Of a stretch of 64,000 nt of DNA, positions 15,967 through 61,322 are shown in pieces. The notes under the pieces were generated by a model that saw only the letters and a list, made by a program, of their open reading frames with translations, was not told where the DNA came from and did no database searches. The position numbers were made by a program, and so were the translations under genes. Source of the stretch: Lingula anatina (lineage: Eukaryota; Animalia; Brachiopoda); NCBI GenBank assembly GCA_051362555.1, contig CM120641.1, positions 29,084,401-29,148,400 on the forward strand, in the 5' to 3' direction. How positions within the stretch are numbered: position 1 is the stretch's first letter; every line of letters starts with the position of its first letter.

Positions 15967-16035
15967 CAGTTGGTTTGTTCCTCTCTGGATGTGCTAGTGG
16001 AATCCATGGACGCTGTGGTGGCTGGGTGGCAGTGA
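15967..16035 (-). CDS. CNOT6: CNOT6 coding exon 4 (linker): FTATQPPQRPWIPLAHPERNKPT
   Basis: Read manually; ttctAG acceptor and G|GTAAGA donor; phase 1-1; conserved PP.RPW linker. Confidence 0.93.
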
Positions 16036-17720
16036 CTAGAAAGACAAAACATTTCAACATTTATGAAACACATAGCATAATGTTTCAACTAAGTCACATT
16101 CTTATAAATTTATTGCACAATAGCACAACGCAATGTTATTTAACAATATAGAAATTTGAAAAGTTTGATGAAATAGCATATTATTTCAAGGTAAATAACA
16201 TGAAAAAATATATATATTGAAACTCATTAACTAAATCTAATTATGAACAGAAAAACGCTTTTGGGCATCCACTCTCACAACTTCAGGCACACCAGTTACG
16301 ATAAATACTTGTACATGAACAGCCCTTGTACATCAACAGCAATATCAATAGGCAATAACCCAGTGATACTTTAAGAGTTAAAATTACTTCAAGTAAGAAG
16401 CAAAAGAGAAGATCTGATGTCCCTCTCTCACATTTCATCTTTTCCTATGTCTCAATGTACATACACTAAATATTGTCCTTAAATGTTATATCTTATTCCC
16501 TTGCTTTAAATAACAAAATATGCCATGTTTCTTTAAGTTAAGCCATTTCAACAAAAACCAACAAATAAAAACCCAAGCCAATGAATACTTCATTATTACA
16601 GTGTGCCTGTGTGTGTGTGTGGTAGGAGTAAACTGATGAGGGTGTAGTTCTGTTCTTTAAATCTTGATGCCTGGGTCAATGCACCATAACTGTATCTCCT
16701 AACCAGATATTTGTGAAATTAACCATACAATACATGTAGGTCTGTTAAGGTCAGAAACCATACCAAATAACCCACTATTCTTTTTCCCCATGACCCTATG
16801 ATACAAGGCACTTCCTATGCCTAGGAAAGGTTTCCTGGAAAATCATTGTTATCTTCAAGAAGTCATTAAATCTAATCAATATATCTCACCCCAAATGATG
16901 TATGATTTCCCAGCTTTCTTCACTTGTTTCTAAGAATGTCAAGCAGATCCTATTCATATTTACCCAACCAATGCATAACTCTTCCATTGTGATAGTCAAT
17001 CTATGTTGTTTCTCTATTACAATTTTCAAAACTGTTCTAGATAATACTAAGACTGAAGTGTTTAGCATCTTGTTGGTTATCAAATGAATATTTCAGCAAT
17101 ATAGCGACAGCAAGCCCAGCTTAGCAAGCACTACAGTTCCCACACTGATCTGAGCCCATTACTCCTAAATCAATGTTACAGTTCAGTGACTCTTTATTCA
17201 CCCGTTTTACGATATTCCCTTCTCTCTCTTTTTTGAAAGTTTTTCTTTTTTAATTCTTTTCCTTCCATGTATTTTAAAACTCTATACCATTCTAAAAAGA
17301 TTTATGAATTTTATGGCAATCCACACTGATCCAACATGGCATAATCCTGATTACCAACAGTTATCTGGGGTCACACCAGTCACTCTCAGACAGAGAGGAC
17401 ATGGGTCAAGATAGGTACTTTGTTGTGGACAAAAAGTAAACTAAGCATGGGCCTAAATATACATTTTGCTCTTAATTAAAAGCTTATTTGTCAGCACTGT
17501 AGTACAATGCTTTTTTTTTCACTTTTTAAAATAATATCTTTGCAAATATCTTTAAAAAACTTGAGCAGACCACAGAATAGCCATAAAACAGTATCCCTTA
17601 CAAAGCATTACAAGCCATGATTCAATTTAATATATAATCTTGCATTTTAGCTCAATCTTAACCAAACTTCTTCTGCAATGTGTGTACACAAAGTTCTGAA
17701 ACTTATCAAGTTACCTACAT

Positions 17721-17955
17721 CATTACCCAAGGATCGATCTGTCTCTGAGGGGATTCTTGCTAAATTGCAATTAACTTAAGCGGCTTAGATGTCCGTTACC
17801 CCTACTGAGGCTGCTAGGGGTAATTAATTATCATTTAGCAGCTTCAGTAGGCGTGCCAGACATAAAAGCCTCTTAGGCTGAAAGCAACATTTAGCAAGAA
17901 ACCCCTCGAAGATGGATCATTCCTGTTAGATCAATCTAGATATGGAGACCCAATC
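17721..17955. mobile_element. MITE copy, same family as 2719-2975
   Basis: Shared blocks aattgcaattaacttaagcg, gccagacat and ttcctgttagatc. Confidence 0.72.
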
Positions 17956-20900
17956 AAACTAACAAGGCATTATTAACCTATCATTTTAAACTTAAATACT
18001 TGGTGGTGTAAGTGCTACAATGGACATTACACTCATAGTGTACGTGAACTGAAATGAAGGGTCTAACACTGAGTCCAACAGCATTCCTGCCTGGATCAAC
18101 ATACCTTTGAGGACACATTTGTTTACAAAACTGGTCTCAGGACATGTCTTTTTTTATCTGACCTTATTACACCTGCATTCTAATCTGACATACTCCACAG
18201 AACATCTATTCATTTCAGTTCAGCCCCAGCCTTCGATCCATTTCAGCTTGCACTACCAATTTTTATGCTGCAACATCTGATGATAATCAAAAAAAGTTTT
18301 TTGGATGACCAGGGTGGGAAAGGGGGGTGGGGGCAATAAGATAAGGCAAAATGTTTTACCACTATCACATAAGCCACAATGGCTGCCACATTTTTGCCAT
18401 GAAATTTGGAAGGACACTTCAGTTGACTAACTATCTTGTGATGGCGTAAATTGGCCTGGAAATCGGCCTAGATGCCTGGTTATTGCTTCCAGGTCATTGG
18501 CATCAGGTTTCCTAGAACTGAGCTACCAACAGGTTATCATGTGACATTTCAAAACTCAAAAACAATCTTTTTTTTTTTTTTTTTTTTGCAACAGGTATAC
18601 CTCAGTAATCATCCAAAAACTTTCTGGATTTTTGGGGTACACCCACATCATTAAATACAGTAATATGATGCCAATGCAGCTATCACCAAAGATGTTTAAC
18701 CTCAAAATTACATACACTCAATTTCTCAATTTCAAACAGCTGCAGTAAGAAGCTGTGACAAACACATATTACCATCAAGTCATCTAAGAACAGTGGTATC
18801 TGATTACAGTCATGCACGTCAAATTATCTCCACTTCTGAGAAATTTATCAAGCAATTCCATAAGTCAGGAATATAGAGAAACCTCAAGAACAAGTAAATA
18901 TGCTTGCAAATTCTGCAATCACTGCTAAACTTTTCTTTAATTCTAATTCATTACTGTCACAACAAAAGAACACAGTTTACCAGTATCAAATTGTGGTGAT
19001 CAGGGATGAATATAAAGCAACGTAGTGCATATATGAAGTTTGTTCTTCAAACTACCCAGTTGCAGTTTACAATCATATTAAGGCATCTTTATACACATTT
19101 TTTGCTAGAATTTGAAGTTAAGGGTCACTCTTGCAATGATGATTGAAATGGAGGCCATTTCTAAGGTACTATGTATGGCTGTATTGAACAGCGGTTGTCA
19201 TTTTGGACCCAAATTGTAGTGCAATGGTCATTTTGGATTACTGTGAAACAGACATTACATTTTTTGGTTTTTCAGGTCAACTTACATCAAGGACTCCAAA
19301 AACTGCAATTACTGAAACCCTCCAATCTGAACTAAAGGAAAGTTTTGGCACTTCCTTCCTGACTCTATCCTAGCAGTTCAATTGTTACATCCAGAATGTA
19401 CCATATCATACCATGATTCAATATTCCTGTCATTCACGTCATTACATCCAAGTAAAACAAAAATTAACAAAACAATAAAGAATTTAAATTAACATATTCC
19501 TGTCATCTTTCATTGATCTGCATCAAACATATTTGATTTACTTACATATTTTGTGCAATTTGTTCTGCTACATTAACTCAGAGCACAATGTGCTTACAGT
19601 TACACAATTGACAACACTGATAACTGGGATGGTTGTGCCACCATCAACACATCCAAGTCTAAAAATCACCTTTTAACTCTGATGGGCATCTTGTAGGTCA
19701 AATTTGAGGTTGCCATTGGGACATGGGCTACGGCAATGACTTGAAAACTTTTAAAACAGCATCCAACATTCATGGAGGCCGAATTTTAAGGATAAAGAAA
19801 CTTTATTTCTGAAATAAAGGTACTTGGGGAAACAACGTGTCAACAGCACCAAGACCATGATAAGCATATCAAAAGCCCCACCTTTTATAATTATGTGTTA
19901 CGTCATTCTAACTAATTTGACTTAATTTCATTCATCAGTTCCCAACTTACGTTCAATAGGGTGACTCCCGTTTTCGCCCACGTCCGCACACATAATTATA
20001 AAACTTAGCAAATAATTTTATTCCATAAGTCTTGGTTATAACACTGGTCAGTGGAGAATGGTGGAGATGGGAGAAGGTGAACTAAGGGTAATGGCTTTGC
20101 TTACAGACTAATTAATGTTCAAGAAAAGGGACTTGCCCAGTGAAGAGATTCCCTAAAACACTTCTTTTCTATCACATTCAAACCAGGCAAAAATGCTATC
20201 AATTCTTAAGTGCTGGCTTTTAAGTCTAACGACATTACCTTATCTCCCAGCAAAACATCTCTCTCTTCCAGGTCTTAAACTATGTCATAGAAAAGTGAAG
20301 GAAAAAGGCTGCAGCAACCAGTTCATACATAACTGAACATCAATTATCCACAACCTCATCTCTATTTTTAAAAATAATAATACAATCATTATTCAAAGAA
20401 AGAGAAGGAGAGACCATTGCCTTACTGAATGAACATACAATCAATAATGTCATTTAAATAATATTCTCTCATAAACAAGTTAAGGTGTTGTACCTGGATG
20501 ATAAAACTGATGACATTACTCATGCAAAGGGGAGCTACAGTGCCAACAGAACTTATGTTTTTTTGTTTTTTTTTAATGTTTCTAATTTTTGACTAAAATC
20601 ATTCATCTGAAGTGCCCTATGTTTAACAAAATGGAATGAAACTGCAAACAAAAACAAAACCTGCAATTTCTTTAAGAAGGTTTTAAAAATGTTTTTTATT
20701 TTGTCCATGAAAAAGACTACCTCCTAGCTCCCATTAACATGAGTGATACAGATGACTTTTCTTTACTCAAATCTGTGCCAGTTGACGATGGCAGAGACCA
20801 GCTCCAATCTAGACGAAAAAAAAACGTGTACTTCAATCAGCTTAAATCAAACACTGAAGGGATAAAACCTACGGACCTTGTGGAATGAGAGGTTGTCACG

Positions 20901-21978: not shown

Positions 21979-24900
21979 TAGTCCAAGAAATTGGTGCAGA
22001 AAAAAGGGTGAATTGTGCGTTTTTTACCTACAAGCATGAAATTTGCCACAGTTGTAGATAATGGAATTCTAAGCTTTTTTGGATATATGGGCATGTCTGA
22101 AAATTCCAGTATGGCCGCCAAATCCAATATGGCCGCCACAAATACTCTTTTAAATTAAAACATCTAATATATAGTCCTAAAATGGTTTAGAATATCATTT
22201 TATAGCTGGAAAATATCATGCTATGAATGAATTATCAATATCCGCTTCTACAGGTGTTTAGAATTCCAAAATGGCCTCCAAAAGTAAAATAAGCAGTTTA
22301 CTTACGCAAAATATGCAGCAGTTTTGTAAAATCATCAAGCACTTACAATTACAAGCATAAAAATTGGGACAGTTATGTAGAACATGATTCTAAGCAACGT
22401 TGGATATAGGGGCATGTCTGAAAATTCCAATATGGCAGCCAATTTCAATATTGCCCCCAAAATACCCTTTCAAGGTGAAAGTTATTTGTATAGTCTTTTA
22501 TAAAAATATCATTTAATGGTTAGAAAATACCATTGTATGTATGAAGTATCAGTATCTGCCACTTAAGGTTTTAAAATTCCAAAATGGCCTCCAAAAGTCA
22601 GCAGACCACAACTATTGAATTGTATTCACTCGTAAATAGGCATGTGGGCTTTGCAAACTACCTGTATAATCACCATATTCCTACCTGTGCAGGAGCTATT
22701 CTACAGAGTTTTTTAAAAACCATCAAGCATGATACATTTATTATGTACTGAAAACAGTCCTTCTTTTGATAAACCAACATAAGTAGTTTGACTTTTTGCT
22801 CTGGATTCTCATTTAGATCAATTCCCAGTTAGCAATCTTCTTATATGGCACTCATGAATGACTCCCCCTTTCTAAGAAAAAAAGTATCGTGCAAAATCCA
22901 TAAAATGTGAAAGAAACACCAGAATAACTTAGCCTTAAAGAGGCAAATATAAAAAAATTGGGGTGTACCAATTTTGTCTGTTGGTTATGATTCTTCAGCT
23001 AGATCAGTGCATGGCGCTTCATCAAATGCTCATAAATATAACAAAAATGACAGCTAATCAAACATACAGGTCTCAACAATTTGGTGTTTTTCATTGGTAA
23101 AGTACTAAAAGCGGGGCACATTTGCACTCGATAATGTTATGATGTTATCTTGTGCTTCAAAAGTAAATTAGAAAAGCTTCTTATTTAAAAAATTGGCTTT
23201 AGTACATTCGCAGTAATGGCTACCGAGAATTTAGTGAAAATTTATGAGCAAAGAAATACCTGTACCCCAAACAGAGGGCAGGTGTTGATACGTGCTGTAT
23301 CCAAGAGTTGCATTGCAGACTTCACACTTCGTGCACTAAAAAAGAAGCACTGATAGGCGCCAAACTTTGGTTTTCATTTGATCATTTGGCAACTTGTTAC
23401 AAACTTATACTTTCAAAAAACTGAACATGAAAATAAAAGAATTAAAATCCTCCAGATAGTTAATACATACAAAACTTCAAAAAACGATGTATTCTGAGGA
23501 TTACACCAAGAAATTAGTGCAATATGGACTTTGAAAGGTAAAAATTCATGAGATTTCAGGCATCATTGTCTCTGTGGGACAATCCAGAATGAAGCCATGA
23601 GGAGAATTCACTTACCCAGCTTACAAAATCTACCAGGTAGCTCCTACCACATCTGTTTGTAGTTATGTGTGCAGTTGCTAACTGTGGTGAGGGGAGTCAG
23701 AAGCATTGGAAGACAATGCTAGGCTAGGGTTCACACTAGTAACCTACATCTACTAATATGCCCTTCCACACTTTCATGTTCCTATGGACCCTCATGCATG
23801 TAAACTGATGCTTTCTGGTGTTAAAAACGACCAATGCCTCTTTGTATTTTGTTGGGGGAAGTTGATTACATGTAGAAGCTTTAGCTTTAAGGAAATACTG
23901 GGAAAGCTGAGGGAAACACAACTACTAGTAAAGCTAGGCACACATTAATGAATGAAAATTATTTAACCAAATACGTAGAAATTTCGGTGTAGCTAGCTGT
24001 TATCCTCTGTTGAGATATTGTCCATTTACTAAAGTAAAAGGTTGACCGCCCATAAAATGTGCAACACTTACTTGATAAAATAACTTTCGTTAATTTGAAA
24101 CTTATTTGTGAAAATACCTTGACATTTTCGTATCCTTGACATTTATAGAATTGCTGCATGTGGTGTCACAACTAGACCAAAAGGAGTCCTGTTCCATTTT
24201 TTATGGTCATTTGGGTCTAAATGTAACTAAAGGAGCGAAAAACCAAAAAAGAGTAAAGACTGTTGTCAGTCAGATTATATAGTAGTCTTTTTTTACTTTA
24301 AAAGGGTTTTAGTGGCCATATTAGAATCTTCAGACATGTCCCTATATAACAAATTGCTTAGAATCCTGTTCTGTACAATTGAGCCAATTTTCATGCTTGT
24401 AGTTTTAAGTGCATGATGAATTCACCATACTGCTGCTGTGAGTGGCCTGTTTTTCTTATTTTTGGAGGCCATTTTGGATTTCTATACACTTAAAGAATCA
24501 AATATTGATACTTCATGCATACCATAGTCTTGTCTAACCATAAAATGTTATCTTAAGTTATTATAGGATTATATATACTTGAAGTTTTAATTTGAACGGG
24601 TATTTGTGTCGGCTATATTGGATTTGGGGGCCATATATGGAAATTTTTAGACATGCTCATACATCCAAAAGTGCTTGGAACCCTGTTTTACAACTGTACC
24701 AAATGCCATGCTTGTAGTTTTTGATGAATTAACCACTCTGCTGGATATCTTGGATTAGTAGAGTGCTTTTTACTATTGGCGGCCATTTTGGATTTAATAC
24801 ACCTAAAAAAGCAAATATTGATTCTGAATTCATACCGTGGTGTTTTTTAACCTTTGTATGATATTTACGCCCTTAAAAGACTATATACTTGAAGTTTTAA

Positions 24901-25366
24901 TTAGAAGCCGTATTTTTGGAGGCCATCTTGGATTTGAAGGCCATTTTTAAATTTTCGGATATGCCCATACATCCAAACTTGCTCAGAATTTCATTTTCCA
25001 CAAACCTGCCAAATTTTATGCTTGTAGTTTTAAGTGCTTGATGAATTCCCCATTCAAATGGATATCTTGAATAAATGGTCTGCTTTTTTTACTTTTGGCA
25101 GCCATTTTGGATTTAATACACCTGAAGGATTCATACCATGGTGTTTTCTAACCTTTATATGATATTTTAAGTCATTAGAAGACTATGTGCTTGAAGTTTT
25201 AATTTGAAAAGGTATTTTGGTGGCCATATTGGATTTGACGGCCATTTTGGAATTTTCAGACATGCCCATATATCCAAATTTGCTTAGAATTTTATTGTCC
25301 ATGAGTGTGCCAAATTTCATGCTTGTAGGTAAAAAATGCACAATTTTTCACCAATTTCCTGGACTA
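21979..25366. mobile_element. 3.4-kb non-autonomous DNA transposon with long repeat-built inverted arms, Academ-like
   Basis: TIR TAGTCCAAGAAATTGGTG / CACCAATTTCCTGGACTA; 3-bp TSD TTG (21976-78 and 25367-69); ~300-bp subterminal units repeated in both arms. Confidence 0.8.
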
Positions 25367-27633: not shown

Positions 27634-29370
27634 TTAGAGGCTTTTCATTACCAGTCACACAGGTTATAGTGTGACTGGTTCAATCCAATCACCAAAAGTT
27701 GAAGACACCCCCCCCTCCCCCAGTGTTTTCCTTGATCAAAATCTATACCTTTCTGGCCATTGGGCAAATTAAATTGGCTGCTTATTAACAAATTTTGGCA
27801 TGACTACAAACAGTAGCCCTGGATCCAGGTTTGTTGAAGAGAAAAAAAAAAATGTTGTAGCAATCCTTTCAAGCTGAAAAAAAGCCCTTAACACCTGGAC
27901 CAATTTTTTTAAAAGGGGCAAAAAGCCATGTCTTAAAGCTATAATACCAGGAAATAAAATATATTTGATGCTTAACTGTGATTTGTTTAACAAAACTATG
28001 TCAACATAAATGCAAAACACATCAGAAAATACCTTTGAGTCTAATCTCTGGAGTCTGGGGAGGGGGGGGGGGAGGGGGGTCAAACACAGCATATCAAATG
28101 TTACTAAACACTCATTAATTAAAAATCATACAATGCAATTAAAATGTAGATCAACAAATTCTTATTAGGATATGTTTATGCCAGTGGGATAAAAATTAAT
28201 TTTCATTAATAAACAGACAAATAGTCATTTTCTGAAACTGTATCATTCTAATACCTAATCAAATTCATCTTTATTTAAGCATCTGATAAGGGTTAACTAA
28301 ATACACTTTTCCTATGTACCACTGGACATCCCTTAGGCTAATGATACCTTAATTATATTTTAACAAGGCCAACAGATGTGCTCCAGTTAAAGAGTCAAAG
28401 ATGTCACCAGAAGATAAAACTGAATAAAAAAAGGAAGTATCACAGATTCATTAGTTGAATCAGGTTGAAAAAAAAAGTTTAATGTATATCTTTTATTTTC
28501 ACACAAACAATTCAGCTAAAAAGTGCAATTTTTTGTTAAGTAATGCTCTTACTTTGAAATAAATAAATAAATGAATAAATAAAAATAAATGTCCTTCTGC
28601 ACATGAAGAAAAAAACACTGTAACAATTCTCCTTACAGCATTTGTTATATGATTCAGCATTCTATATGCCAACTATCTAGAATGGCCATCATGCTAAAAG
28701 CAAATGCTCTAAGGCAAAGAGGGACAGTACAGAGTAGTTTAAAGGAACAAACTATTATGAGACTCACAGCCTTGACATAATTTATGCAAAACTTTCACAA
28801 TATGCCTCATAGTATGAAAATGGAAACAATGGTACCATGAGACATGAATGATATTCAGATTCAGCTGATGTAAATTAACATTGTAAATGCAAAAGTCCCA
28901 AAGGCTTTGTTTGAGGTAGCACTTGACAAAAAGTGGATTTAGTTAAGCCCCTATCTGATGCTGTCATACAAAGAGAAATTATATGGAGACAACAATTCTT
29001 GTCTGACCAGAATCAACAGATACAACCGTCATAGTGCATTTGACACTGTCTTTCAACTGCATTTAACTTAATAAAGCTAACATCAATCTTTTGAACACCT
29101 TCAAGGATTTCATCCTGTTGTCACCAGTTACAAGGCTTTGAAAGCTGCCAACTTAACTAGTCAATGGCCTGGGCAAAAAAAAAGACTGCAGATAAAAGCA
29201 TGACATACCTTGCCAGTACCAGGAAATTCTGCCTAAAGGAAACAAACACCACACTGTTGTGACACACACTTGAAAACACGAGGAAATTCTATACTTGTCC
29301 CAGGTTACACAATGGCTGCATCCAGAAACATTTCAACTTTTAGGCTCCAAGTGAAATAAGTTGCATTTAA

Positions 29371-29687
29371 CAGGCCTACCCAACTACCAGACTCGGCACC
29401 GAATGATCCAGAATTCACCGGTAAATTGGACCACACTACCCGTTTTCAAGGTGTGTATCAGTACGCATTTCACAGTATCAGACGCGACACCGCTCTTGCC
29501 TAGTATGCGATGTGATAGTGACGATTCTGAGCGGGGTTGAAAAGCATTGCATCACCACTCAAAATTTGCTCAGGGTATGATACTGTGTAATGCGATCTGA
29601 CACACACCTTGAAAACGGGTAGTGTGGTCTGATCTACCGGTGAATTCAGGATCATTCGGTGCCGAGTCTGGTAGTTGGGTAGGCCTG
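29371..29687. mobile_element. Palindromic MITE with ~110-bp TIRs and 6-bp TSD ATTTAA
   Basis: CAGGCCTACCCAACTACCAGACTCGGCACCGAATGATCC... and its reverse complement; ATTTAA at 29365-70 and 29688-93. Confidence 0.88.
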
Positions 29688-30487
29688 ATTTAAGCATCTT
29701 GTTCATACTTCAATTAACCTGCACGACTGCTCATTGTGATGACCAAGAAACTCTGGCATTACAAAGCCTGAGAGTGCTAGTTAGTATGAAACTGGATTAA
29801 CTCGAAAGGTGCTGGGCACTACTAGTGATAACCAAAGGGACTTCACAAAGAGGACTAACTAATTAATTAAAATGTGACTAACTTCAGAGTATCATTTGGC
29901 ATCAACAGTCGACCACACTGCTTGATATAGGATAGCTAAAGGAGATCTGTAGATATTATAGTGTGAGGGAACTCTCAGATTCTACATCAACTGTCCATAC
30001 AAACGTGCCATTCACTTTATAAATATTCTTCATGTAGATGACACAAGTTCCCTGGTCAGGGGTTTGTTCTTTACACAATTTTATTGCTAGGAATTTTATG
30101 TCTCTGACCTTCAGACCAAAGTTTTTTTTTTCTCAAATGTACAAAATTATAGGTACAAAAGGTTATCTTATGCACTAAACCACCTTGGTTACCACTTCTT
30201 ATAGAAACATTCAACATTATCAGTTGCACATCCATAAATAAAAGACACATAAAGATGTCCTATTAAAGGAATAAATCACAGCATGCAATGGTCTCCTCTA
30301 TTTCAGTAGCATTCCATGGTCCATTTATGATGTGGCACCAGCTGCATGGATAGAATAGTAAACGGAAAAATAGCATGAATCTCACCAGTGACTTATTCAA
30401 TAAAAAAGAATGCACAAACCGTGTCAAATAAACACAGAATGCTCCACAAAGGATTAAAAGTACATATACCAGAGTGACATTTACTAA

Positions 30488-34900: not shown

Positions 34901-35963
34901 ATTGTAAGCTAAGTGATTGTATTCTTGCACAGCCAAGGAGACCAATCCTCACTTGACATTGCAAAAATAATATCTTAATGAACAGATCATCTCATTTACA
35001 GACAAACTTCTAATATTATGTACAACAAAGTAGAGTTTGCTGTTATTTCCAGTTACTTATTTTGCTAAAAAGCTAAATAAAGATGGACCCCCTTTTATTA
35101 AAGCTACAAACAGATATATGCAGTTGCATTCTTCACCATTCCAAATATTGTTCACAAAAGGCAGAGGAAACCCTTATCATGGCAAAGATATCTCATACAG
35201 ACACAGATGTGCTAAAAGTCTATCATGACATTTTATCATGTAAGTAATCATTAACGAAAGCTATATTTATACAGATATATATATATTTTTTGTACCCCTG
35301 ATGAGCCTTCAGGGGCAACAACTGTTGGGAAAAAGACAGTAAATAATGTAGGGAGTTATCATTCTATTGATAACTTTATCTTTTAGCTTCCCGAAAAGAG
35401 GAGAGCACTGTGACCATGGGGAAGTTAATATGAAATTTGCATTCAAATTTATATAATCCAGTGACTGCGTTTGGCCTACATTTTGAAACAAACATACCTT
35501 TGAATACCTCTGCAATATTTAACATACAAGCTTTGCAGTTGGTATTACCCCCTCAATGCTTTACCCTCAGTAATTTTTTTAGTTAGAGAATAGTTCTATT
35601 TGGAATAATTTTTGTGCTATTTCTTTATCCACCATTATCAGAGAATCACTCTATAAGCAATATTTCAATGAACATACAATTTACACCTACAGGGTATGCA
35701 GCTATATGACATTGATATATTTGAGGCTATATTTTACAGCTGTTAAACAAATGATTTTTCAAAATGCATTTAAAACCGAGGAAACACTTCAATAACACAA
35801 TCCAACAAAATCAATCCCAGAAATACATTGGATTTAACCACTTAATGATTTCATAACTAGATGAACTGTGAGGTATAAATATTCAACCCGTAATAAATTT
35901 AACTTAAAAGTAATAAATAAACACAGACTGCTGGTGGAAAAAAGAATATCCAAGCAAACTTAC

Positions 35964-37653
35964 ATTTTGGCAACTCAGCTGGTGGGATCATGTGCTCCTT
36001 GGGGATGGATTCAAGGTCCTGCTCCATAAAATAGTAGGACTGGGGTATGTGCCAGTGTACAGGTGGGATGTAAGGCCCAGGGGCATACAAGGAGGGGCAC
36101 TCCATAGCAGGGTAGTACCAGTACCCATTGTAGAAAAAACTGTGTAGGTGCCCTGTGCTGGGAGTATTATTATGATAGTACACTGTGATGGAAACATCCG
36201 ACTCTGTGAGATCCATGTATACCCCTTCCACTGGGAGGAAATCTTGAGCGTTCTGCCTTTTAGTCTTGTTCTTTCGCTTTCTTCGTTGTCGTTTGGAGGA
36301 TGTGGAGGATGAACATGAAGATGGGGATGAGTGGGTGTTGGGCAGGTTCAAGAGTGAGAGATACCAATCCCTGTTGTTGTTGTTGTAATTATTACTGCTG
36401 TATTTCAAGGAATCAACATCAATATAGTCATCCACTTTCTCTTCCTCAGAGTCAGAAGTGTCTAAATTTCTGGGAACATACACCTCTTTGGTTTTCTTCT
36501 TACTACCAGGCTCTTCTGTGTGGGTTGTCTTCGATGTTTCCTTAGTTGCAACAGTCTCCTCCTGCAGGTCTGCTTCTGCTCTGATGATGCTCCTTCCCTG
36601 AAGATAGGTTGCATCTGGGATGTATGCCACTGCCCCTGGGTATGCTGACAAGGCAGCCCCAGGGTAATACCACCCCGCTGCGGCAACACACTCAGGGCAC
36701 TCGTGGTGGAAACAGCCAAACTTGGTCAAAGGAAACCCTGTTGTATATGCTGCAAGTTTCTCCACCTCTGCTCTGCTGAGAACTCCAGCTCCCCCTTCCT
36801 CTGCGAAGGAGTCCTGAGAAATGCTGTCTGAATCATCGGAGAAAGTCTCAGATGTAGAGACAATGGAGGAATTCTCAGAGTCATCTGTGGTGGTGCTAAG
36901 TGTCTCAGAGGCTGACGAGACTTCTGAGTTGAGATTATTACATATCAGACTCACATTTGAAGATTTAATAATACTCTCCCATTTCACATGTTCGAGATCA
37001 TAGGCATGATCTGCAGGGTGGTGTGCCCCATGCATGCTGCTGCCTGGATTTGAGATCATATTATTCAGGAGTACCTGAGGCATGTAGTTTTTACAGCCCC
37101 AGTAGCCCTCCCCACCCCAGTGATACCCAGGGTGGAGGTTGTATGGAGCCAGGGGACGGTCCTTCTTGTGAACCTTCTCTATTGCTGAGAGGAATGCATT
37201 GAAATTCTTACTGTTTTTGGCCTTAAGGCTTACTACAGCCGAGCTCCCTCCACTGCTGCTACTTCCACTGTGATTTCTGTATCGCTGATTGTGGTGATGC
37301 TGATGATATCGATGATGATGGTGATGGTGTTTTGAATATGACACCATTTCTGCGTTGTTATCCTCCTCTGATGCCTTCAACAAATCTTTCATTTTATCGC
37401 CACCCTTGAAGGCTTCAGACAGTTTGATAATGATTGGGGAACCAGATTTGTTCTTTACCTCTTTAGCCCAGCTACTCTCTCCCTTTTTCTTTTTCTTTGG
37501 TCGGGAACAAAATCTCTCTCGTTTACAGTCCTCGCAACTGTCACTCATAGACATTCCTTCCATACGCTGGTGAAACATGTCTCTGCTGACCACATCTAAA
37601 GTGCTCGTAAGTGACACACAAGTTGCCACCTTCTTACGCCCTTTTTTACCCAT
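35964..37653 (-). CDS. Putative alternative first coding exon of CNOT6 (563 codons + 1 nt), novel low-complexity N-terminus
   Basis: 584-codon ORF with raised GC inside a CNOT6 intron on the same strand; T|GTAAGT donor at 35963-35958 in phase 1, matching the exon at 16035. Confidence 0.8.
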
Positions 37654-38469
37654 CTTAATATCTGTTCAGTGGAGCGGATTTCTCCTCTACACGTTCCTTC
37701 TTCAATATATATATATATGTGTGTGTGTGTGTATAAATGTAAATTCCTCCCCCTTTTCTTGGCCTATTACCAATGATACAGTATCTGTGTTTTATTGTTC
37801 CTCTGACCTTTTATTTCCCATTAGAATTCTCTTCCACTGTGAAATCTGATCCTCTCTTGTCTTATTAAACCTAGGTGATATGTTTACTCTCTCTAAACTG
37901 CAATCATCCTGTCTTAGATTTGTGACTGTAAATCCTCTGCTTCAATCGAATCACGCTTGTCTTACTTACTATAATTCTCTGCAGAAATTGTGCCAACTCC
38001 GTTTATCATTGTGGCATCACAGTGGTGCATTATTCATGATACTTCTCGTTAATCTCAGCTTTCCTGTTCTATTCTACTATGCTTTCATGAAGTCTCCTTT
38101 AAGAAATGGATATCCAATGTTTGATCATAATGGTAGTTACGTCCTTTATGTCTTCTTTCCTTTATATCACATAAAGAATGTCATCTATAGCAAGCCAATC
38201 AAGCTATATTACCTGGACATGAATAATTTAAACTGGATTGCAGGTGATATATATATATAATAGAAACATCCTTCAATGAGCAACATACCACCGATTTGTT
38301 GTACGCTGTACTGTGATCCTTTTGTGCTGTTCACAATGTTAAACCATGGATTGATGACCAGCCACTGTCAACAAAAACCCCAAGTCATGTTTTATCCACG
38401 CAGGTAAAGACTTAAAGCCTGACCACTATATAGCTGTTGTTGTGTTATGCTCAGTCAAACTACTAGTAC

Positions 38470-38530
38470 TATACTAGCTCCACATGGCCAGCAGCCCAAC
38501 TATTTATACCTGTGACGTCATGACCTTAGC
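38470..38530 (-). promoter_or_regulatory. Candidate internal core promoter: CRE TGACGTCA (38513-38520) + TATAAATA (38508-38501) + Inr-like CTAGT (~38475)
   Basis: Minus strand reads AGGTCA-TGACGTCA-CAGG-TATAAATA, oriented toward the 37653 ORF. Confidence 0.6.
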
Positions 38531-46490: not shown

Positions 46491-46713
46491 GTCTCTGTTC
46501 ACATGAAAAATCTATTTTCTAAAAATCTATTTTCTATTCGCGGTATCTTTTGATCACTCCGAGCACAGCTGAGAATTAATTACAGATTTGGAAGTAACTT
46601 GCTTGTGCTGCCAGTAATTACGCCGCGGGGTATTCAGGGCACAGACCGTGATCACAAGATACTGCGAATAGAAAATAATTTTTAGAAAATAGATTTTTCA
46701 TGTGAACGAAGCC
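46491..46713. mobile_element. Palindromic MITE (Harbinger-like), adjacent to a truncated MITE end at ~46402-46470
   Basis: GTTCACATGAAAAATCTATTTTCTAAAAA and its reverse complement; TGA/TAA flanks. Confidence 0.8.
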
Positions 46714-52659: not shown

Positions 52660-52758
52660 AATGTAAATTATCCAGCATATATGCGAGTAACTTATGTGTT
52701 CCATTGGCCTCATTATACAGATTAAGAATATCTGGACTGAGGGGGTTCCCTTTTAAAC
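52660..52758 (-). CDS. CNOT6: CNOT6 coding exon 3: GLKGNPLSPDILNLYNEANGTHKLLAYMLDNLH
   Basis: Read manually; ttccAG acceptor and T|GTGAGT donor; LRR C-cap GLKGNPL. Confidence 0.94.
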
Positions 52759-54136
52759 CTGGAAAGAAAATTGTATAAATTTTTTCTCAGGCTGAATAAT
52801 GGGTACAAAAAGTCAATAGGAAGACACTTAAAACTGAATGTGCTGAGACCAGAAAGGAGAAAATTTTCTAATTCAGAAAATAAAAAGTTAGCAATCTTTG
52901 ATAAATGCGACATATGCCAGTGAAGGTGTGTAAGATCGCAACAATTGTCAGATTTACGTCATCATGCCTGCAGTTATGGTGAACAATGCTGGGGTCCAGT
53001 ACAAAATTTCCAAAACCAATGAAAATGTTCTAAATGTGTTAGGTGAGACCAAGGCATGGCTGTTCTAAAACACAATCACAACTGACTTTCCCACTGGTCT
53101 CAACTGGAACATTATCACAGATGTCAGTGTGACAGTGCCTCAACAATTAAAATATAAGGTGTAATGTCCATGAGGCTTTATAGAAAAAGAGACATCTGAT
53201 AAAAAAATGATTTAATATATTATAATGATAAACAGTAAATCCTTTAATATTTTATCATAGAATATTTTTTCATAGAAAACACAAGATGAAAATAACACAA
53301 TGCACCGTTTTTCCCTAAGTAATGCAAATAAAGGTGTGTGAAGTGATCTATGGTTTCCTTTGGTAGTATACTTAAAAACCTAAATCAACTGGTATATTCA
53401 TTAATCATTTACAAACATCAGCTGGGGCATTTTTATCAACATACTTGTCTTATCTCTTCTTATCTAAAAGTTTTAAATTTAATAAGTACTACAAGGGTGT
53501 CAGGTTATCTTAGGATGTAATCTAAATCAATTAACACATTAAAAGAAACATTGAGATTGTTGACCTGGAGCATATTGAACTTAAGAGCTGAAGCCCAAAG
53601 TTTGGTCTTAACTTTCAGACCAAAAATTTAGTTTTTTTCAGTTAAGATAAATAGTAGCCTACTTAAACAGTATATGAATCTGAAATATCAAATTCTTTTT
53701 GACCTTATACTGATCTTTCTTGGGTCAAATAGCCTAGAATTCTTATATGGAAGCTAAGATTGAATTCTGTGCTCAAATTCTTTTGTGAAACCATTTTGTG
53801 AACTGCTAGTACTTTAATAACACACACACGTACTTAATACCTGTATCTGTTTTAAATCTAAAGTGTACTAAGTTGTTCAACGTAACGAAGTGAGGTGCCA
53901 GTGCAGGAATGTGGGCTCACGTGTTACTCATTTATAATCTTATCAAAAAAATTCTCATTGCTGCTGGAGTACTTCCCACTATTGGTGGTGACTGCTTGCA
54001 GTTGTCTATATTGTTTTTTTAGTAACAATTAAGTTATTTTTAACACTTCGTCAAGGTCTGAAATTGGAAAAGCTTCCTTCACTAACAAGGGAGAGATTGT
54101 AGATAATTTTTATTGTTTTTTTTTTCGACAACTCAC

Positions 54137-54400
54137 CTAGGGTTTGCAACTGGAATAGTTTCCCTAACTCGTAGGGGAGTGATCTTAGATAATTGTTATT
54201 CAACAGCAGTTCCCTGAGTGTTATCATGTCCCCCAACTCAGCAGGTAGACTCCGTAGCTTGTTGGCTGACAGGTCCAGGTAGACTAAGTTCTGTAGCCTG
54301 CAGATGTCTGCTGGGAGTCGTGTCAGGTTGTTGTCATTCAGGTACAGAGATGTCAGGTGCTCTAGCTGCCATAACTGTGGGCTGAGATTACGAATGGTCC
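54137..54400 (-). CDS. CNOT6: CNOT6 coding exon 2: leucine-rich repeats (TIRNLSPQLWQLEHLTSLYLNDN...LFQLQTL)
   Basis: LxxLxLxxNxL repeats; ctAG acceptor and G|GTGAGT donor. Confidence 0.96.
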
Positions 54401-55375
54401 CTAGAATTTTTTTTTTTTTTTTTTTAATTATCATGTTTGAATAATATTTTTCTCAAATTTTTTGTATCAACATACATTTTCTATTTTTCACAAAAGAAAA
54501 TTACAAAGAGTAACTTAAAATTACTAGAAAAACACTCAGAGTGTGCAGACCTCCGCCAAGGAAACTGAATTCTCATTATAATTAATAAATCATTAATCAA
54601 ATCATAGAGTCGATTTAAGTGTATAAATATAATACAGTCATCTGAGCAATATACGAAGAATATCTTTATTAGGATATACATGGTCGCAGGGCTTGCACAG
54701 CGCTTCTTGGGGAAACTTATAAAAAGTACAGATAACTAACACCAAATGTGCCTAGAAACACTACTGAGAAAGAAATTTATATATAAAAACTAAAAAACAG
54801 CATTAACATATCCATTTTCTATGGTAGTTATTATACCTTTTCAATTCAATGTGACAAGGGATACTTCTTACGGTCCAAATGTGACTGTAAAATTTGACTG
54901 GTCCAAATTGACACTCTGATGCAAGAGGTCAGGTCACATTTTTGTCAAGGTGTAAATAGTACACAATTTGTAGAGCTCTGACAAAGAACTTGTGCAGCTT
55001 CAATGCAGAGCCCATTTCAATGGAAATTGTTATTACCATCAAATCTAATCGTTTGTTCCTTAGCTCATTTTGACCAATTCTGAAAATTTTATCAAAAAAC
55101 GCTTCCAGAACTTTTTCTTTGCCAAAAGACAAACAAACAAAATAATTGGAATGAAAACAAAACCTCCTAGCTAAAGGTAATAAAAGCAAATTTAAAAAAT
55201 AGAGAATATACATACAATAAAGCATTTGTGTAGCAGTTGCAATCAGTTTTTTTTACAATGGAAGAAACTGCTGCAATCAGTTATTTGATTCAGTGCCTCG
55301 AGAGGAGTATGTGAATCATGATGTGAGCGTTTTAGCAATGTTCACAGCATGGCTGTCACAAATCTATTCATTTAC

Positions 55376-55487
55376 CTGTAATTTCTAGCTCATACCACTG
55401 GGACTTTTTTCCTGCTACAACGTCTTCCATTGACATGATTGTGTGTGTCCTACGAGGGTTTGGCGACTCATATTTTTCTTTTGGCAT
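55376..55487 (-). CDS. CNOT6: CNOT6 coding exon 1: MPKEKYESPNPRRTHTIMSMEDVVAGKKSQWYELEIT (exon begins at 55498)
   Basis: Read manually; matches the conserved animal CNOT6 N-terminus; G|GTAAAT donor. Confidence 0.95.
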
Positions 55488-55937
55488 GTTGGTGAGGTCT
55501 AAAACAATAAAGTTAGCGAATGATACAAAATGAACTGTGAAATAAAATATAAATAAAGCAGATGGCTAAATGAAACACTTGATGCTGTCCATCATTTCTG
55601 TCTACTGACTTAATTTTTCATATAACTTTCACTAATTACCTGAATAATTTATAAACTGAAGTTGCTTCCACCCACAATAATTCTTTAACCCATGTTCCAT
55701 ATCTAACCAATGTATTTACTATAACTCAAACTGGAATTATCCCATACCACAGTAATAGTTAAATCCCATCTTTCTGTAGCAAATATTTTACCAATTATAT
55801 CATCAAGTATTTAATTCTATAATACACAGATATTATCATATCCTCTTATAAATAACATGTAAAAAGAGAAATTCCAGTATCTTTACAAGCTATCTTCTTT
55901 ACAGGAGGAGGGATAAAACTAAAATTTGCCTGAATTA

Positions 55938-56732: not shown

Positions 56733-56856
56733 GGTTTGGTGACTCATATTTTTCTTTTGGCATGTTGGTGAGGCCTAAAACAATAAAGTTAGCCAATGAT
56801 ACAAAATGAATTGTGAAATAAAATATAAATAAAGCAGATGGCTAAACGAAACACTT
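56733..56856 (-). repeat. 124-bp duplicate of 55457-55580 (acceptor, ATG and first 10 codons of CNOT6)
   Basis: Ungapped near-identical alignment by eye with about 5 substitutions. Confidence 0.92.
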
Positions 56857-58899: not shown

Positions 58900-59170
58900 G
58901 TCAGAATCTACCTTAAAATTTGGTGCTTTGGAATGCCCTTACCCTAATGAAATGTATAAGAAAAGAATACCTGTCGATCCTGTCTGGTCGCCACGTCACT
59001 ATCCAGTGCAGTTCAGCACACATAGTGTAGAAAAAAGCTTAGAAATGCACAGGGAACTGGCAGATCCTTCCATGATGGATGACATGAATAAATATGTTTA
59101 CCTGGAGTTGAGATTTGATACGGAAATTACAAAAGAAGTCATGGTAAAAGGTGGAAAAAAAGAAACTAAG
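58900..59170 (+). CDS. MRPL1: MRPL1 exon 3 (...PVDPVWSPRHYP...MHRELADPSM...YVYLELRFD...)
   Basis: ttcAG acceptor and AAG|GTTAGT donor; resembles the N-terminal part of mitochondrial uL1. Confidence 0.88.
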
Positions 59171-59398
59171 GTTAGTTTGTGGGGTAAAGAAAATGGCCTT
59201 TTGTGTTGTTTTTGTATTTTAAATTTTATTTTGATAAACGAAAACATACAGACAGTTTTGATTTAATTACCATCATTGTAAGTAAACCATGTTTCAACAG
59301 CTCAACTGATATTATAAAACAGTGTATAGAGAACACCTCATAATTCATGACTTCATAATTGACATAAATTAAAGCAAGAAAAATATTCTTCATCTCAG

Positions 59399-59488
59399 GT
59401 ATCCTATCTTGAAAGCATAAGTGATTACTTGAAATTCCCTCACATGTTTGAAACAAAAGAGAAGCGGCGAGTAATGGTTTTTTGCAAG
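59399..59488 (+). CDS. MRPL1: MRPL1 exon 4 (VSYLESISDYLKFPHMFETKEKRRVMVFCK)
   Basis: Read manually; uL1 'LPH...KV.VF' motif; phase 0-0. Confidence 0.85.
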
Positions 59489-59778
59489 GTAAAACAATAT
59501 GTCAGTAACATGAAACTGCTGTTATGTTTGATGAAATGAAGGTGTCACCAGTTGCCTGAAGGGAAGACTGAAGATGTTTCATTTTAAATGATTATCCTAA
59601 TAATGGGTGCTGCTTCGTTAAAAAACTTTTTGTCATATGCTATGAATAAAAATATAAAGCAGCAATCAATCAATTTCAAGTAAACATCACATTTCTTATT
59701 TGTGGTACTGTTTGTGCAGTTGTACAATTATTTTCTCATCCAAAACAAATCCTTTTATCGCAATGGAAATATTTACAG

Positions 59779-59847
59779 CCTGAAGAAGTAGAGCTGGCCC
59801 TGAGCAATGGAGCAGAGATTGCTGGTGGAAAAGAATTAGCAGATCAG
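59779..59847 (+). CDS. MRPL1: MRPL1 exon 5 (PEEVELALSNGAEIAGGKELADQ)
   Basis: Read manually; uL1 signature GA..AGG..L. Confidence 0.88.
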
Positions 59848-60176
59848 GTCAGTGTCTCTCTCTTCTCTCCCCGTACAATTTAATGGTGTTCTATACAGAA
59901 TTTGCCTTCATGTGGCATTCTTTACTGAATTTTCCTGGCAATATTATTCTACTCATTACAACTACCTGTTCCTGCTTCACCTATTCCTGTATTTCGACGT
60001 TTTAGTTATTTTTTAATTTTATGATTTAGTTGTAGATAAACATAGAAAATATGATTTAGAGAATTTTTTTAAAATGCAAACTGATACAGTGTACTTTTGA
60101 TCATTATATCGTGCTTTCTTTTCAGAATAGATTTTCATGTTAATGGCATTATGTTTTATTTTTGTGATGCCTATAG

Positions 60177-60297
60177 GTGGACAATAATGAAATTGACTGG
60201 AAGAACATGGATGTCATTCTGGGCACAGTGGATGCTTTGCCAGACATACTATCTGTCAGGAAGAAGATTAAAAATAAGTTGCCTACTCAGAAAAGTG
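60177..60297 (+). CDS. MRPL1: MRPL1 exon 6 (VDNNEIDWKNMDVILGT...KKIKNKLPTQKS)
   Basis: atAG acceptor and G|GTATGT donor. Confidence 0.88.
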
Positions 60298-60786
60298 GTA
60301 TGTTGCCTGATCTCACAGCATATATAGGTTATATTGTATATGATGAGATAGTATATTACTAATTGCTGACTAAAAGTGAGGAGGAAGTACATTCTAGAAT
60401 TTATGTTATCCATATTTATTATTTACTAAATTATAAACATCACAGCTCAGTTTTATTCCACATGCCCGTGATCATATAGATGCCATGGCAAATAGCCACT
60501 TACAATGAAAAAAACCTCAAGGAAAATCAGAATTTTATTGCACTACACTCGGTTATAACATTTACCTATTCCAAAGTGACAACACCTGATTATATATAAG
60601 GGGGGGGGGGGGGGGGGGGGGGGAGCTATTAGGCCAAAGAATTCACATTCTATTTATTTTTGATCTATCAAAATATTTATGTGAATGCACCAGTGTTTTA
60701 TTATGTATTTCATTTTACAGAACATGTTTTCTTAACTCAAACTCAGTTTTCTTAACTCAAACTCAGTTTTATTGTACTTTTTTTAG

Positions 60787-60899
60787 GGACTCTGGGTGTG
60801 GACTTGGTTGAAATGTTGAAAAAACATACTGATGGAATTGGAATGACATCTTTTCCAGTTAAAGCCAATATTTCCATTATGAAGGTCAAGGTTGGAACA
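60787..60899 (+). CDS. MRPL1: MRPL1 exon 7 (GTLGVDLVEMLKKHTDG...KVKVGT)
   Basis: Read manually; ttttAG acceptor and ACA|GTAAGT donor. Confidence 0.88.
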
Positions 60900-61243
60900 G
60901 TAAGTTGTTTCTAAAGAAGCGAATATAGGTGTTACAGGTTAAAGAGTTAAATGATATAAACATTTTACAGAACTTCAATGTAAATTTGTTTACAGAGTGT
61001 AAAAAGTGCATATATAAAGGTCTTTTTAATGCTGATATTTTATTTTTATTCTCTGTAATGGATTTAGACATTTGACAACACCTAAAGTCTGTAATATGGT
61101 CTTACAAAAAGACAAACATTTGAAGTGAACCATTTGCTTCTATTGGGCTGCCATATATATGTGTGTGTGTGTGGTCATGTGATTCATACATTCAAAAGAA
61201 ATGGGACACAGAAATAGCATTGCCATTTTCTTTCATTTTCCAG

Positions 61244-61322
61244 CTTGATATGCCTGATAAAGAAATTATAGCAAATATGGATGTGGTTGTCAAATCAGTT
61301 ATGCAGCAAAGAAGCAACATGG
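61244..61322 (+). CDS. MRPL1: MRPL1 exon 8 (LDMPDKEIIANMDVVVKSVMQQRSNM)
   Basis: ttccAG acceptor and G|GTAATT donor; uL1 'LDM....I..N' motif. Confidence 0.9.

Follow-up and report, generated by a model that had tools for sequence, protein, structure and literature searches.

The CNOT6/CCR4 locus of the brachiopod Lingula anatina gives rise to an LRR-less isoform, in which a 1,690-nt alternative first coding exon, located in the intron that separates the LRR exons from the nuclease exons, is spliced directly to the latter. The existence of this isoform as mRNA is virtually certain, with RNA reads crossing the new junction in all of the aligned runs.

An alternative first coding exon within CNOT6

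The window analyzed, a 64,000-nt stretch of genomic DNA, carries CNOT6/CCR4 on the minus strand. The canonical N-terminal exons (55487-55376, 54400-54137, and 52758-52660) are LRR-bearing, presenting Pfam LRR_14, LRR_8, LRR_1, and LRR_4 matches above cut-off across 52660..55487, and the last of them is separated by a 36,624-nt intron (16036-52659) from a 69-nt linker exon (16035-15967), followed by six EEP nuclease exons (13530-13373, 13147-12993, 11082-10931, 9160-8933, 7141-6964, and 6482-6224) recognized by PF03372 and CNOT6L/CNOT6 structures. By model, this LRR route translates to a 557-aa form with the final stop only. Within the intron and on the same strand lies a 584-codon ORF (37653-35902), the longest in the window, which spans 588 aa from stop to stop; the runner-up reaches 153 aa, and the longest stop-free frame ranged from 122 to 177 aa across 20 resampled windows. 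The ORF presents a T|GTAAGT donor after position 35964, and the last LRR exon a T|GTGAGT donor after 52660, both in phase 1 and with the codon split after T. GT-AG dinucleotides were found at every exon border of both routes, and joining the ORF route by coordinates (1690+1199 nt) resulted in 962 aa with no internal stop. The new exon consists of positions 35964..37653 (minus strand; 1690 nt, 563 codons plus 1 nt), as delimited by the ORF, the RNA, and a RefSeq model, while the GTAAGT donor and the intronic read-through tail (35899..35963, minus strand) fall outside the spliced mRNA, as indicated by RNA depth and by the GC content of the 21-codon ORF tail (0.29, versus 0.47 in the exon). The preliminary description of this DNA had proposed all of this layout, namely the longest ORF inside the 36.6-kb intron, the donor phase and split base shared with the LRR exon, the in-frame join to an intact EEP domain, and the AT-rich last 21 codons, and its coordinates and arithmetic proved to be right.

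Other features were observed in the window. A 124-nt segment (56733-56856) is a copy, 96% identical, of 55457-55580 and duplicates part of the first coding exon, including the CNOT6 start codon and first codons. A multi-exon gene at ~58900-61320 (plus strand) is placed head-to-head with CNOT6; one piece of it had no Pfam match, and we take it to resemble mitochondrial ribosomal protein L1. A tandem repeat of ~300 nt (24305-25366 and 21979-22598), with inverted copies 2 kb away, and palindromic elements (29355-29703, 46497-46707, and 17730-17955) are likely non-autonomous transposon remnants.

The transcription of the new exon was assessed with four of nine RNA runs bearing the same label, which were aligned to 35300-37700 using 6-30% of each run. 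The ORF was covered in all four, by 330, 44, 83, and 70 reads (~15, 3, 4, and 4 reads per kb per million). Read ends breaking at 35964 were observed in every run (25, 7, 7, and 7 reads, 46 in total, with an agreement of 0.99-1.0), and their overhangs presented a single consensus identical to positions 16006-16035, which defines the junction 35964 to 16035 anticipated from the sequence. The linker exon (15967..16035, minus strand) thereby provides the acceptor for the new exon by reads, and for the LRR exon by model. In X1 and X4, the two runs that look stranded, every first mate was on the plus strand, which corresponds to minus-strand RNA under the usual library type. An older 1036-aa model with two additional small exons (20711-20806 and 16765-16836, minus strand) was unsupported in these runs, since the 46 junction reads pass directly to 16035. 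Moreover, an independent nested gene ending just after 35899 was not seen, as RNA depth beyond the 35964 donor was 0 in three of the four runs, reaching at most 2 in run X9, and no poly(A) hexamer was found in the 500 nt after 35899.

As the exon sits downstream of the LRR exons and upstream of those for the nuclease, and the reads were aligned only up to 37700, it might be an internal cassette that brings LRR, module, and nuclease together in one protein. Such a reading is very improbable. An in-frame TGA (37666..37668, minus strand) is placed five codons (15 nt) upstream of the ATG, read coverage was unbroken through both up to 37700, and no further loose read ends were detected in 35965-37700 at a threshold of 3 reads in the four runs. 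Therefore, the exon is the first coding exon, and a fusion behind the LRR does not occur at a detectable level. Likewise, none of the LRR-bearing proteins among the best 120 nuclease matches was matched by the profile of the new N-terminus. The exon has its own start codon and is joined to shared downstream exons, as expected of an alternative first exon, and the earlier designation as a first exon holds in the coding sense.

This exon is under purifying selection as protein. Among 41 variants found in the reads, 40 were listed and 38 of these were coding, comprising 31 synonymous and 7 non-synonymous changes against an expected synonymous share of 0.21-0.28. The resulting pN/pS of 0.06-0.09 (p<1e-11) reflects differences between individuals or populations rather than a between-species dN/dS. 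The three listed indels, of 9, 3, and 6 nt, were all multiples of three.

A candidate promoter was found ~850 nt upstream of the ATG (38501..38520, minus strand), consisting of what we take to be a perfect CRE (TGACGTCA) with a TATA box 4 nt on. This was the only such pair in the window, and when the 1.5 kb upstream were resampled 5000 times in a post hoc test, the pair arose twice. The LRR-less isoform would be transcribed from this promoter of its own, which is possibly cAMP-responsive. Arguing against a start at this position, the leader would span ~830 nt and carry 15 upstream ATGs. A leader intron is possible, given a donor-like site at 37969.

Distribution of the module and orthology of the nuclease

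The isoform had been described beforehand as hidden, which is overstated, since automated RefSeq/GenBank models of it exist for many species. In L. anatina itself, XP_013381924.1 and XP_013381925.1 (LOC106152755) represent the same predicted protein, an "uncharacterized" product of 960 aa with PF03372 only, and the joined 962-aa model was 99.8% identical to XP_013381924.1, the alignment having no mismatches and a single gap of 2 residues within a His run. Mollusc counterparts are recorded as "uncharacterized isoform X1". All of these models were generated automatically, under the names "uncharacterized" or "poly(A)-specific ribonuclease", and neither a family nor a mechanism nor a paper was found in connection with them. 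A literature search by title and abstract start, with subscription journals outside its coverage, returned no article on an LRR-less CCR4 isoform, and the passages available from PMC4033318, PMC3870282, PMC8216464, PMC3057700, and PMC7105381 do not mention one; those of PMC4033318 note that subunit sizes vary through splicing. Thus, the isoform is known as an automated annotation, and no description of it was found.

The 563-aa N-terminal module encoded by the exon defines a family of its own. A profile search recovered 63 clusters at 50% identity among 1.84 billion representatives, and after two further searches 91 of 103 well-covered module proteins were non-redundant at 90%. Twenty-four full models consist of module, linker, and EEP domain without LRR, and they belong to 22 named species (the brachiopod, a chiton, 12 bivalves, 7 gastropods, and the annelid Paralvinella) and 2 other records. 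Most of the 24 join at the aligned exon-end motif, that of Paralvinella having a longer end. Judging from these homologs, which outside Lingula are known from gene models or contig ORFs alone, the LRR-less CCR4 isoform with this module is anciently conserved in brachiopod, molluscs, and annelid, and these animals likely produce such a second CCR4 form. No module was found outside Lophotrochozoa among the species-named matches. No Pfam family at E<0.01 occurred in more than 1 of 42 module members, with no MYND or LRR family among them, and a PDB sequence search returned nothing under E 0.26.

These data also bear on the reading of the ORF as a nested gene in its own right, a remnant of a transposon or virus, or an ORF arisen by chance, which is largely refuted and hardly credible by now. 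Stand-alone ORFs make up the majority of homologs in the collections, as in Owenia and Batillaria, where the module occurs as a lone ORF, and the depth past the donor in run X9 would fit such a gene. However, the stand-alone homologs end as an unspliced exon would: among 84 single-ORF homologs scored, 62 had the exon-end motif, and in 60 of these 62 it was followed by C-K or C-E, the outcome expected, as judged from the proteins, if the frame ran on through a T|GTAAG or T|GTGAG donor, and the tails beyond are unconserved. The junction reads in all four runs and the lack of a poly(A) hexamer after the stop argue against it as well. Furthermore, no transposase, RT, gag, or viral family was matched in Pfam, nor was there any match in PHROGs, which covers prokaryotic viruses only, so that the match to a transposon or viral protein that would have refuted the earlier reading was not found.

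Regarding the nuclease, the EEP domain of the isoform matched PF03372, and its best PDB matches were CNOT6L/CNOT6 (E 3e-155), far ahead of PDE12 (2e-32), Angel (2e-22), and Nocturnin (6e-21). Five catalytic motifs, scanned with the patterns YNVL, LQEV, GDFNS, IDYI, and SDHF that we take to represent them, were kept in all 24 models with module and EEP, and the isoform also aligns to 3ngn. The new exon joins immediately ahead of the PPQRPW linker, the site at which the nuclease construct that was crystallised aligns. The isoform has the orthologous EEP domain and the catalytic motifs of CCR4/CNOT6 and lacks the N-terminal LRR.

Among the best 120 nuclease matches, 26 were without LRR domains, of which 18 carried this module, 7 another N-terminus, and 1 was partial. 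A nuclease tree was built from 53 chosen rows (24 module, 7 other, and 22 LRR; one row was dropped as it failed the motif match), and in it module and LRR forms paired by taxon with starred support, as in Gigantopelta X1/X2, Mytilus, scallops, and unionids, which is what a single gene with two alternative N-termini would predict. In Gigantopelta, the module form X1 and the LRR form X2 carry consecutive accessions and have their last 401 residues in common. Together with the junction reads and the homologous models, this tree upheld the proposal that one locus yields an LRR-less CCR4 with a swapped N-terminus.

The module-bearing nucleases of Lymnaea, Biomphalaria, and Bulinus were placed on a branch of length 1.3 (support 100/100), and these pulmonates, whose LRR gene was absent among the matches listed, may thus have a paralog dedicated to the LRR-less form; one further record was likewise on a very long branch. 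LRR-less CCR4 models with the same junction and a different conserved start were also observed in chelicerates (scorpion, ticks, and mite), a cladoceran, and one further record, their start motifs being G.CLI, W.G.P, QG.PL, and LPR..KPRKRR (LPRV/ILKPRKRR-type). Homology of this arthropod N-terminus to the module was rejected (hhalign probability 0.9%, no profile match). The CCR4 models of Drosophila gunungcola and Penaeus have yet other starts.

Anatomy of the N-terminal module

The module consists of short conserved blocks in a fixed order: helix and CxxC, PIVIxL, KNFNAFLSAIEKVH, LNN, ICNDL, an acidic Ser tract, helix and CPEC, DLT..V.YH, a Pro/Tyr tract, and the exon-end motif. The first four inter-block intervals have medians of 30, 65, 66, and 77 residues, with long outliers. 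On the minus strand of the window, motif 1 (aa 20-47; 37513..37596) comprises a helix, the first CxxC, whose C..C was kept in 91 of 91 members, and a basic cluster. Motif 3 (aa 149-165; 37159..37209) is the KNFNAFLSAIEKVH helix and the top-conserved block, and motif 6 (aa 291-329; 36667..36783) presents a helix and TG.P followed by CPEC; like motif 1, both were delimited by alignment and AlphaFold. By alignment, motif 5 (aa 233-241; 36931..36957) comprises ICND/NL followed by a Ser/Asp/Glu tract, motif 7 (aa 476-494; 36172..36228) reads V.xDLT.xDV.xxV.YH, and the exon-end motif (aa 537-563; 35965..36045) lies after the Pro/Tyr-rich tract and adjoins the donor.

AlphaFold predictions with 42 or 91 sequences gave a low-confidence module with a few helices and a well-folded nuclease. 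The module alone had a pTM of 0.24, with helix 151-164 at pLDDT ~82, and in a full-length homolog the module was mostly below pLDDT 50. As both runs were of low confidence, no fold or binding surface was identified in the module. Short conserved blocks in fixed order are the pattern expected of a disordered region with motifs that fold on a partner, and the new N-terminus is probably disordered. Basic clusters, with 4-6 K/R in 7 residues, occurred in 24 of 24 models, a count made without background control. A PAM2-like string, scanned with a pattern that we assume to be representative, was rejected as the family function, being present in only 4 of 24 models with a poor fit.

Proposed function of the isoform and its alternatives

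The 1,690-nt exon is transcribed and joined to the CNOT6 nuclease exons instead of the LRR exons, and the mRNA encodes a CCR4 of 962 aa that retains the catalytic motifs intact but not the CAF1-binding repeat. In the proposed mechanism, the protein is predicted to be made and active, deadenylating RNA outside CCR4-NOT, and the conserved short motifs of the new N-terminus would steer the enzyme: the helical motifs and the two CxxC pairs may fold upon binding RNA, an RNA-binding protein, or zinc as partner, and thereby determine where the enzyme acts and on which substrate. The most likely product is an active deadenylase that has no LRR through which to enter CCR4-NOT and is positioned by motifs of its own, with a probability that we put slightly above even.

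Work on known enzymes speaks for this free enzyme. Deletion of the LRR in human Ccr4b abolished CAF1, CNOT1, and CNOT3 binding and left activity in place (passages of PMC3057700), and the isolated nuclease domain of CCR4a was active and flexibly tethered, making no specific contacts with the remaining complex (passages of PMC8216464). On the other hand, the yeast LRR was critical for activity (as cited in PMC3057700), a basic patch of the human LRR assists RNA binding (PMC8216464, in part), and fly Nocturnin was reported to co-precipitate with CCR4-NOT despite having no LRR, a report flagged as needing confirmation (excerpts of PMC4033318). The low confidence of the module in both AlphaFold runs also weighs against the free enzyme.

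The main rival holds that the module is a replacement adaptor, which reattaches the nuclease to CAF1 or to one of the NOT subunits via a short helix or zinc-binding motif, creating a variant CCR4-NOT; we consider it a minority possibility, though a substantial one. Its precedent is plant CCR4, which lacks the LRR and binds CAF1 via a zf-MYND-like domain (excerpts of PMC7105381), and the module too has conserved cysteines, in two CxxC pairs, besides the KNFNAFLSAIEKVH helix. The same precedent qualifies the preliminary description, which had inferred a complex-independent nuclease with a swapped targeting module. In addition, fly CCR4 levels drop upon POP2/CAF1 depletion (PMC4033318, in part). 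Against this adaptor, the 42 members contained neither a MYND nor an LRR Pfam family, the PDB search was negative at the above E-value, and the module, of ~500 aa, is mostly low-complexity with no compact domain.

Rather less probable still is that the module mainly gates or relocates the enzyme, by autoinhibition, Ser/Asp/Glu phosphorylation, nuclear import through the basic clusters, or condensate entry through the Pro/Tyr tract, or that mRNA poly(A) is not what the free enzyme acts on. The basic clusters would fit import, and human Ccr4b without its LRR becomes cytoplasmic and excluded from the nucleus (passages of PMC3057700), so that with an import signal its location would differ. For another substrate, a plant member of the CCR4 family without LRR is reported to be an NADP(H) phosphatase (PMC12557515). 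However, changed chemistry is unlikely, since the nuclease is identical in sequence to that of the LRR form in most species, and adding the nuclease did not raise the AlphaFold confidence of the module, which is weak evidence against gating, the two runs having different first sequences.

The isoform differs from the closest known enzymes. It shares gene and EEP domain with CNOT6/CNOT6L (CCR4a/b; PDB 7ax1, 3ngn, and 7voi), the locus also encoding the 557-aa LRR form, but its LRR is swapped, via an alternative first coding exon, for a 563-aa module without known family. Nocturnin, Angel, and PDE12 are likewise CCR4-type EEP enzymes without LRR, and in reviews the LRR is the defining feature of animal CCR4, LRR-less EEP enzymes being assigned to genes of their own (passages of PMC4033318 and PMC3870282). 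Those three are separate genes with distant nucleases of their own EEP sub-lineages, whereas here a true CCR4 nuclease, common to the LRR form, sheds the LRR by exon choice. Plant CCR4a/b (zf-MYND-like and EEP) likewise combine a non-LRR, cysteine-containing N-terminus with CCR4; however, plant CCR4 is a constitutive gene product (PMC7105381, in part), while the Lingula form is one of two isoforms, with no MYND-type match in 42 members of its family.

A broader evolutionary scenario can be offered tentatively, at less than even probability. A complex-free second CCR4 may have been kept in Lophotrochozoa since before the split of brachiopods, molluscs, and annelids, with an internal promoter inducible through CRE/TATA and disordered, cysteine-bearing motifs; arthropods would have converged on it via an unrelated exon at the same junction, and pulmonates would have made a dedicated, fast-evolving gene of it.

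What is new here is an unnamed protein module of at least 91 members, which 24 models carry at the same junction, fused to a CCR4 nuclease that is intact. A conserved and expressed LRR-less CCR4 would be the natural counterpart of the engineered delta-LRR enzyme, and knock-downs targeting the nuclease exons would strike two differently wired enzymes. The isoform makes complex-independent roles of CCR4 in animals directly testable.
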